From the IMG/VR virus record IMGVR_UViG_2874945390_000011: 42,488 nucleotides of DNA, one strand, 5' to 3'. Position numbers and translations under genes: made by a program. This document shows positions 40,280 through 42,488 of this stretch, piece by piece. This stretch comes from a virus. Lineage: Duplodnaviria; Heunggongvirae; Uroviricota; Caudoviricetes. The stretch's first letter is position 1. Each line of letters begins with the position of its first letter. The notes beneath the pieces are model-generated. The model was not told the origin of the DNA. It made no database searches and worked only from the letters and a program-made list of their open reading frames with translations.

Positions 40280-40438
40280 TTAACTGACTATTCGAAACTG
40301 AATTTATGCCAGCAATGGCAGGGATTCGCTCAACCTTAATTAAGGAGAAAAACATGAACACCAATTATGAAGCCACTGTTGCAACTACTGATAACTGAGG
40401 TGTACTGGCAATAGCGGACACTACCATTTGTTCTTTTT

Positions 40439-41257
40439 TTAAGCAGCCATCTGATGATATTTTTCCCTGAAGGCTGCCGGGGAGATATTCCCCAGACGAG
40501 AGTGACGACGCTGACGATTGTAGAAAATCTCAATGTATTCCCGTATTACTGAGATGGCTTCATCCCGGTTATTAAAACGATAGTGGCTCAGGCTCTCATT
40601 TTTCAGCGTTCCCCAGAAGCTTTCCATCGGAGCGTTGTCGTAACAGTTACCTTTACGCGACATTGATGTTTTCAGACCAAACTGCTCCTGTATGACCCGG
40701 TAATCGTATGCGCAGTACTGTGAACCTCGATCAGAGTGGTGGATTAGCCCGGTAGGTGGGCGCTGGCTCCTGAGCGCCATAAACAGGGCTTTACCTGTCA
40801 GCTCTTTTGTCATGCGCTCTCCCATGGCGTAGCCGACAATTTCGCACGTATAAACATCTTTGATGCCAGCGAGGTACAACCATCCCTCCTGTGTGGCAAC
40901 ATACGTCAGGTCCGCCACCCAGACCTGATTTGGTGCTGTAGGAGCGAACGTCTGGTTCAGCAGATTTGGCGCAACTGGCAGATTGTGGTTCGGGTTCGTA
41001 GTCGCTCTGAACTTTCGTTTCTGCTTACAGCGTAGCCTTAGCTCCTTACTAAGACGTGCCAGTCGGTCACGACCAACGATGATGCCATTCTCTGCCAGCT
41101 CCGTCTGGAGCCGCCGGGTTCCATATGTTTCGCGAGTGCGGATATGTGCCACCTTAATCTCCAGTTTTAGCCGCTCATCACTTTGTTTTCTGTCTGAGGG
41201 TTCATGCTGTACCCAGTTGTAATAACCGCTCCTGGATACACCAAATACCTGACACAT
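40439..41257 (-). CDS. IS600 OrfB transposase
   Basis: 272-aa ORF nearly identical to copy A OrfB. Confidence 0.85.
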   Translation of the reverse strand: MCQVFGVSRSGYYNWVQHEPSDRKQSDERLKLEIKVAHIRTRETYGTRRLQTELAENGIIVGRDRLARLSKELRLRCKQKRKFRATTNPNHNLPVAPNLLNQTFAPTAPNQVWVADLTYVATQEGWLYLAGIKDVYTCEIVGYAMGERMTKELTGKALFMALRSQRPPTGLIHHSDRGSQYCAYDYRVIQEQFGLKTSMSRKGNCYDNAPMESFWGTLKNESLSHYRFNNRDEAISVIREYIEIFYNRQRRHSRLGNISPAAFREKYHQMAA

Positions 41258-41292
41258 CGCTTCAATGGGAAATTGTTGTCGCCATTGTTCGA

Positions 41293-41595
41293 TTAACGCG
41301 TATTTTTCAGCGACTCCTGTGCAAAATACGCTGTTGCTTTTTTTAATATATCTCGCTCAAGGCGAGCTTCATTTAACGCCTTACGCAGTTGCAGAATTTC
41401 AGATTCCAGTTCAGCCACCGTGCGGGAACCAGGAGTACCGAGCCCTTTTCTGGCGGCGGTAACCCATTGTCCTAAAGTGCCTTCAGGAAGGGATAATCGG
41501 GAAGCGCCTTCACTGATCAAAAGTTGATTTTCAAGAACCGTTCTGACAGCTTCGGCTTTGAACTCTTTAGAGTAACGTTGGGTTTTTCTGCTCAT
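41293..41595 (-). CDS. IS600 OrfA
   Basis: 100-aa ORF about 97 percent identical to copy A OrfA. Confidence 0.85.
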   Translation of the reverse strand: MSRKTQRYSKEFKAEAVRTVLENQLLISEGASRLSLPEGTLGQWVTAARKGLGTPGSRTVAELESEILQLRKALNEARLERDILKKATAYFAQESLKNTR

Positions 41596-41660
41596 TATTA
41601 GCTCCTTCTGATGCCATTCTATTTCAGGAAGGAGTGTCCGTTAAACTCAGGCTACCTCAC

Positions 41661-42488
41661 ATTAATGAAGCGGAAAGCAGCGGTTCCGTAATGATCATCG
41701 ACTCCATCAGTCACTTCTGGACCGGATTATGCGACGAGTATGCCAGACGCCGAAACCGTAAACGAGGACTGGAATTTTCAGACTGGGCGTGGCTCAAACA
41801 GGAGTGGCGACGCTTTACCGATCGATTTGTTAACAGTCAGGCGCACATTATTATGTGCGGGCGTGCAGGATATGAGTATGACTTTTTCGAAGGTGATGAT
41901 GGCAAACGCCAGTTGGCAAAAACCGGTATAAAAATGAAAGCAGAAACAGAAACCGGTTATGAACCCTCCATCCTGATCCAGATGGAGAAGCAAATGAACA
42001 TAGAAACCGGTCAGGTGTGGCGCACCGCCAGAATACTAAAAGATCGCTCCACCCGTATTGATGGACAGGTATTTTCAAACCCAACATTTAAAAACTTTCT
42101 TCCTCATATCGAGTTTCTTAACCTGGGAGGTGAACACCTCGGCATCGATACCTCACGGGATAACAGTGAATTATTTGCCAACGACGGTACACCGACATGG
42201 CTAAAAGAAAAGCGTGCAAAAGAAATCGCACTTGATGAAATTATCGAGTTGCTCAACAAGCACCATGGGGGCACCAGTAACGACGCCAAACGCGCAAAAG
42301 CTGATTTGCTGGAAAAAACATTCACCTCCCGCTCATGGGAAAGAATCAAAGGTATGGACTGGCCGACAATCAAAGCTGGTCGTAATGCACTATGGATTGA
42401 ACTGGAAGGCGTTGAATATGCATTCCCGGATCCACAAACACAAAACGAAACGCAACAAGCAGGATACGATGAGAATATTCCGGTGTAA
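41661..42488 (+). pseudogene. hypothetical phage early protein, 5' end truncated by IS600 copy B
   Basis: Open frame runs from the IS boundary to a stop at the window end; the listed N-terminal residues are encoded by the IS terminus. Confidence 0.45.

Follow-up and report, generated by a model that had tools for sequence, protein, structure and literature searches.

An IS600 copy between mismatched flanks marks a 2.8-kb deletion in a defective Shigella boydii prophage

IS600, a member of the IS3 family, is one of the five insertion sequences that have expanded in every Shigella species, and it contributes to pseudogene formation and gene loss (PMC7373316). The closest described deletions are those of another IS3-family element, IS150. 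A deletion accompanied 14 of the 83 IS movements recorded in the E. coli long-term evolution experiment, in each case a movement of IS150; the target duplication was absent in 14/14 of these events and an earlier IS was present at the same genomic position in 14/14 (PMC11708052). Loss of the target duplication at a deletion is attributed either to recombination between two IS copies or to adjacent deletion, and fusion of orfA to orfB in an IS3-family element leads to more adjacent deletions (PMC11708052). The IS600 copy described here (copy B) resembles the IS150 cases, such as the loss of rbs, in having an IS3-family element at the junction, no duplication, one unchanged flank and a loss in the kilobase range (PMC11708052). 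The difference is that for IS150 the earlier insertion was seen directly in the time series, whereas for copy B the order of events is reconstructed.

The DNA analysed (the window, 42,488 nt) comes from Shigella boydii CP026836.1 (GCA_002950135.1), with which it is identical across the overlap; the accession is listed as S. boydii (PMC12817139) and corresponds to a finished chromosome of 5.1 Mb. The host element is a lambdoid, Rac-like prophage carrying ipaH and integrated at ybhA-modC: 3' of the window, the source genome continues with DUF1187, excisionase and integrase genes, then with ybhA and modC. Positions 1-2040 of the window match the ipaH gene (a T3SS effector E3 ligase) of the EIEC strain VL40 and are not covered in the related E. 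coli genomes FDAARGOS_943 and FDAARGOS_944, which points to ipaH as a cargo gene that varies among relatives. The features discussed below are collected in Table 1.

Table 1. Coordinates of the IS600 copies and of the features adjoining them in the window
Feature	Position	Strand	Remarks
IS600 copy A	29489..30752	+	Simple insertion, GGT/GGT; at codon ~13 of a minus-strand DUF1364/YbcO-like gene
Inter-IS600 segment, immunity and replication region	30753..40395		9643 bp; orientation as in IS-free relatives
Stub of the 98-aa hypothetical early gene	40354..40398	+	ATG after AAGGAG, 14 codons (MNTNYEATVATTDN), then TGA
IS600 copy B, intact	40396..41659	-	1264 bp; OrfA 41293-41595, OrfB 40439-41257, both minus
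284-codon junction ORF	41634..42488	+	Opens at a GTG 26 nt within the IRL end; shares the frame of the ATPase remnant
AAA_24 ATPase gene, 3' part	41660..42488	+	Third base of codon 90, codons 91-365, stop

The window contains one long inverted repeat, with arms at 29489-30753 and 40395-41659 (1265 nt, 99% complementary) and a spacer of 9641 nt. The ends of the element were set by comparing six full-length copies, i.e. copies A and B and four from related loci, whose flanks diverge exactly at these points: the true length of IS600 is 1264 bp and the 1265th base of the repeat reflects a fortuitous match between flanking bases. Both copies have TG...CA ends and imperfect terminal inverted repeats, and run from TGAGGTAGCC to ACACCTCA (end CACCTCA). 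Each carries an intact orfA (100 aa; Pfam HTH_Tnp_1, E 1.5e-19) and an intact orfB (272 aa; Pfam rve, E 2.6e-26), and an A7G slippery run upstream of the orfA stop is the predicted -1 frameshift site joining the two; in RefSeq, likewise, the two frames of IS600 are joined into one CDS labelled 'programmed frameshift'. The copies are 98.5-99.5% identical over their full length to the RefSeq 'IS3-like element IS600 family transposase', of which there are thousands of E. coli records, and this identity together with the ORF layout justifies the name.

At the nucleotide level, A and B are 98.9% identical. Their 14 differences all fall between IS positions 141 and 667, which leaves a stretch of 597 bp without any. 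Relative to the common IS600 sequence, copy A has 11 SNPs and copy B has 5; the change at IS position 907 is common to A and B only, and the four SNPs private to copy B are at positions 141, 610, 645 and 667, with none in 668-1264. Copy A has ten private SNPs, clustered within 145 bp (window 29738-29882, IS positions 250-394; ~7% local divergence), and the change at 907 is its only other departure from the common sequence. This cluster resembles a patch acquired by conversion from a diverged relative of IS600.

In length, ends, orfA/orfB organization and slippery run, as well as in the 3-bp duplication made on simple insertion, the copies are like the IS600 of Shigella and EIEC. The duplication was perfect at all four independent simple IS600 insertions in the window and the related loci (GGT, TTG, AAC and ATG, with a chance expectation of 1/64 each). 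Only two copies lack it, namely copy B and a second copy in FDAARGOS_943, and both are located at deletions relative to IS-free relatives. Copy B departs from typical IS600 on this point: it is flanked on the left by ...GATAAC (...ACTGATAAC) and on the right by CATTAATG (CATTAATGAAG...), that is to say by AAC and CAT. The initial annotation had already called these flanks without a repeated triplet, with the caveat that the IS ends might be one base off. The ends fixed from the six copies agree with its call, and shifting them does not give copy B a duplication either. Moving the boundaries in order to recover one was rejected, since it destroys the duplications of copy A and of the three other copies that have one.

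On the left, the first three bases of copy B (TGA, 40396-40398) provide the stop codon of a 14-codon ORF. The stub is identical to the start of a gene found at position 6579 of the FDAARGOS_944 locus (L001) and at 7357 of the GCA_031665325.1 locus (L012), where ...GATAAC is followed by ATTGTTCACGAGG and the gene goes on to encode a 98-aa hypothetical protein. The last 159 nt of this left flank are also 100% identical to the FDAARGOS_943 locus (L003). On the right, the 829 nt that follow the IS are 100% identical, in 10 E. coli genomes, to the 3' terminus of the WP_001173292.1 gene, which encodes an AAA_24 ATPase. An ORF opening within the IS terminus runs in frame into this remnant: its first nine codons (VSVKLRLPH) are not ATPase sequence, the first 26 nt being provided by the IS end and the ninth codon spanning the junction. 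Both ORFs had been pointed out beforehand, the left one as being ended by the TGA of the IS and the right one as beginning inside it, and both readings were borne out directly at the coordinates above.

The sequence missing between the two flanks was identified by comparison with related prophages, the check that had been proposed for the suspicion of an IS-mediated deletion or recombination. In the IS-free relatives E. coli FDAARGOS_944 and GCA_031665325.1, which have the same allele as the window at the left junction, exactly 2839 bp separate the two flanks of copy B, which keep their order, strand and orientation; the right-flank sequence CATTAATG is preceded there by ...CTGCTTGAAGC. Same orientation, collinearity and extra DNA between the flanks in IS-free relatives are the arrangement that identifies an IS-associated deletion, and the suspicion was well founded. 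The order of genes in the relatives is Rha, YdaE, 98-aa hypothetical, Exonuc_VIII, Gam, AAA_24, DUF1187, Exc and Int, with a RecE-family exonuclease of 646 aa when intact, a Gam of 98 aa and an ATPase of 365 aa. What the window has lost is the 98-aa gene from codon 15 onward, the RecE-family exonuclease gene, gam and, from the ATPase gene, codons 1-89 plus the first two bases of codon 90. Genes are therefore truncated on both sides, as had been proposed: the stub is the start of the 98-aa gene and the right-hand ORF carries residues 91-365 of the ATPase. The recE-family gene is annotated as a pseudogene already in these closest relatives. Copy B lies at the junction of a deletion of ~2.8 kb in the early-left operon, and its lack of a duplication is explained by the removal of one flank in this adjacent 2839-bp deletion.

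Little is left of the ATPase in functional terms. The Walker A motif of the intact protein (GFAGDGKT, residues 20-27, with GDGKT at 23-27) is absent from the remnant, and the Pfam AAA_24 profile matches it over positions 60-153 only, against 3-153 for the intact protein. With Walker A lost and a match starting only at position 60, the remnant cannot function as an ATPase. No sigma-70-like promoter reading outward from the end of copy B into the remnant was found, the only site there being a promoter-like sequence directed inward, toward the transposase. The 284-aa junction ORF is present among the gene calls of the source genome and is on record only in that genome. When the truncated ATPase was looked up with the ATG at 41691 as its start, the only hit was a short contig in which the intact gene is split, and the deletion was not seen.

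As to the way in which the deletion arose, the route that we favour, as somewhat more probable than all others together, is insertion followed by adjacent deletion, with an order of events that we infer. IS600 would first have inserted normally at one of the two endpoints, making a 3-bp duplication; one end of the element would then have attacked the other endpoint on the same molecule; and the resulting transposase-mediated adjacent deletion would have removed the intervening DNA together with one copy of the duplication. The literature on IS150 deletions is what leads us to place adjacent deletion ahead of recombination between two IS copies, which comes close behind.

IS3-family elements move mainly by copy-out-paste-in via a circle, and for such elements a route in which a second copy inserts and the two then recombine homologously is at least as natural. 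Two direct IS600, one with AAC at ...GATAAC and the other with CAT at ...GCCAT, could in that case have undergone RecA-dependent recombination, with removal of 2.8 kb and of one IS. This is a real possibility, to be held tentatively. It predicts exactly the AAC and CAT flanks that are observed, around a hybrid IS; the segment has been hit by IS600 repeatedly (in FDAARGOS_943 and in recE, besides an IS3-family copy in the ATPase gene), which makes the presence of two copies in one lineage plausible; and recombination between IS copies is, with adjacent deletion, one of the two usual explanations for a missing duplication (PMC11708052). It does, however, require one event more than adjacent deletion, and its expected traces are missing. 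The SNPs of copy B form no clear two-parent mosaic, a point on which their pattern fits no one route over another. The 284-aa junction ORF, which a parental genome with IS600 inserted at CAT would also have, is on record in the source genome only. Neither parental junction was found in the GTDB representatives or in the complete E. coli genomes: the predicted ancestral junctions (IS end followed by AACATTGTTCAC..., and ...GAAGCCAT followed by IS end) were absent as exact patterns from the GTDB species representatives, which include almost no Shigella, and synthetic junction queries of 140 nt gave no match in 5,426 complete E. coli genomes, again with almost no Shigella, except for an FDAARGOS_943 copy offset by 4 bp. 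Because the collections searched hold almost no Shigella, failure to find an intermediate in them is weak evidence.

The 4-bp-offset copy belongs to a prophage of the same type, at the same chromosomal site. It is an IS600 at 7028-8291 of the FDAARGOS_943 locus, in the same orientation as copy B and 4 bp from the left junction of the latter (window 40390-40400); it is flanked by a separate TTG duplication, and the hypothetical gene goes on past it. That the two copies stem from the same insertion is disfavoured by the 4-bp distance between their junctions, by the separate TTG duplication and by the lack of shared private SNPs. Independent insertion is the reading favoured by these sequence differences.

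The same FDAARGOS_943 locus has a second IS600 (9158-10421) without duplication (ATG on one side, CTA on the other), which directly connects the 5' portion of recE with a truncated integrase gene; here, in a prophage of the same type, IS600 borders an independent deletion that extends from RecE to int. IS600 is also found inside recE in VL40, in the related locus L017 and in several other E. coli genomes, and an IS3-family copy is located in the AAA_24 gene of CP026824.1.

IS911 can target sequences resembling its own ends. Seven bases beyond the IRL end of the TTG-flanked copy of FDAARGOS_943, the target reads CGAGGTTTACCTGG, similar to the IS600 terminus TGAGGTGTACTGG; a terminus-like motif was looked for at the other three simple IS600 insertions and none was seen. 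It appears doubtful that the start of the 98-aa gene is a sequence-directed hot spot for IS600 or, failing that, that copy B came to it in one step, at a DNA break and without making a duplication. Were the hot spot real, end-like sequences would guide both the insertions of IS600 and the endpoints of its adjacent deletions.

Capture of IS600 at a DNA break during the 2.8-kb loss, with no duplication and no earlier insertion, is improbable when considered by itself. Neither a duplication nor an intermediate was found, as this predicts, and a one-step mechanism was proposed for IS5 and IS481 events by Ngan et al. 2024 (PMC11708052). Yet all 14 IS150 deletion events were traced to an IS already in place (PMC11708052), and in collections nearly devoid of Shigella a missing intermediate counts for little. 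Even less credit can be given to an assembly artefact in which two direct IS600 and the intervening 2.8 kb collapsed into one copy. IS copies are classic collapse points and the junction ORF occurs in one assembly only, but the source record is a finished chromosome, 2.8 kb of unique sequence would have had to disappear in the collapse, and a comparable IS600-bounded deletion exists in the independently assembled genome of FDAARGOS_943.

Removal of copy A together with one GGT restores the minus-strand DUF1364/YbcO-like reading frame, and alignment of the window with an IS-free relative (L019) gives two segments, 24001-29488 and 30753-35302, whose counterparts in the relative have exactly 3 bp in common. 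Copy A is an independent simple insertion. Collinearity with this relative extends from the structural genes to the right flank of copy B; since it spans both IS sites, the assembled state is the un-inverted one.

The segment between the copies encodes a cI-like HTH protein, Cro, YdaT, O-like, DnaC/IstB-like, DUF977, Rha and YdaE proteins, in agreement with the earlier description of a 9.6-kb immunity and replication region bracketed by the two IS. It holds, in addition, a 1142-bp IS630-family element (window 37504-38645; ORFs 37605-37874 and 37840-38625; HTH_23 and DDE_3 domains), missing from four related prophages and with its target TA duplicated on both sides. Compared with the 75-aa P22_Cro-type gene of GCA_031665325.1, the minus-strand cro-like gene of this segment (~36050-36270) has lost 4 bp in one deletion and 1 bp in another; the resulting frameshift leaves a 33-aa stub and is one more indication of a defective prophage.

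That the flanks of copy B stem from an inversion between A and B, or that the two form a composite transposon carrying the 9.6 kb, can practically be discounted: A and B are inverted and share near-identity over a long difference-free stretch (98.9% and 597 bp), which makes them good recombination substrates, but an inversion would mismatch the flanks of both copies whereas A keeps a perfect GGT/GGT; the IS-free FDAARGOS_944 and the window keep the same order of sequence to either side of A and onward as far as the right flank of B; the two flanks of B belong to one operon, in the same orientation and 2.8 kb apart; and the outer flanks, GGT and CAT, show no duplication, against the insertion of a composite. 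Inversion was rejected for the assembly on account of the preserved duplication of A and of the collinearity with the IS-free relative, and the composite transposon on account of the differing outer flanks. Inversion between A and B is a generic possibility only, with rare isomers conceivable.

To conclude, copy B is an ordinary, textbook case of an IS-associated deletion in a defective prophage, of a kind already known. The deletion has cost the prophage its recE/gam recombination module, and copy B probably blocks read-through of the early operon towards xis and int. It adds to the decay of an element already made defective by a frameshifted cro and two other IS. In this respect the prophage, with its IS630-family insertion and its frameshifted cro, does not differ in substance from the IS-driven decay known for Shigella. 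For annotation, the consequence is that the 284-aa 'AAA_24' ORF, being a truncated gene remnant joined to a piece of IS sequence, should be given as a pseudogene. The recurrent insertion of IS600 in this short segment, in Shigella and EIEC lineages, may be of use as a lineage marker or for studying the choice of targets by IS600. Beyond annotation the importance of the case is small: it is one more documented instance of IS600-driven decay of a Shigella prophage.
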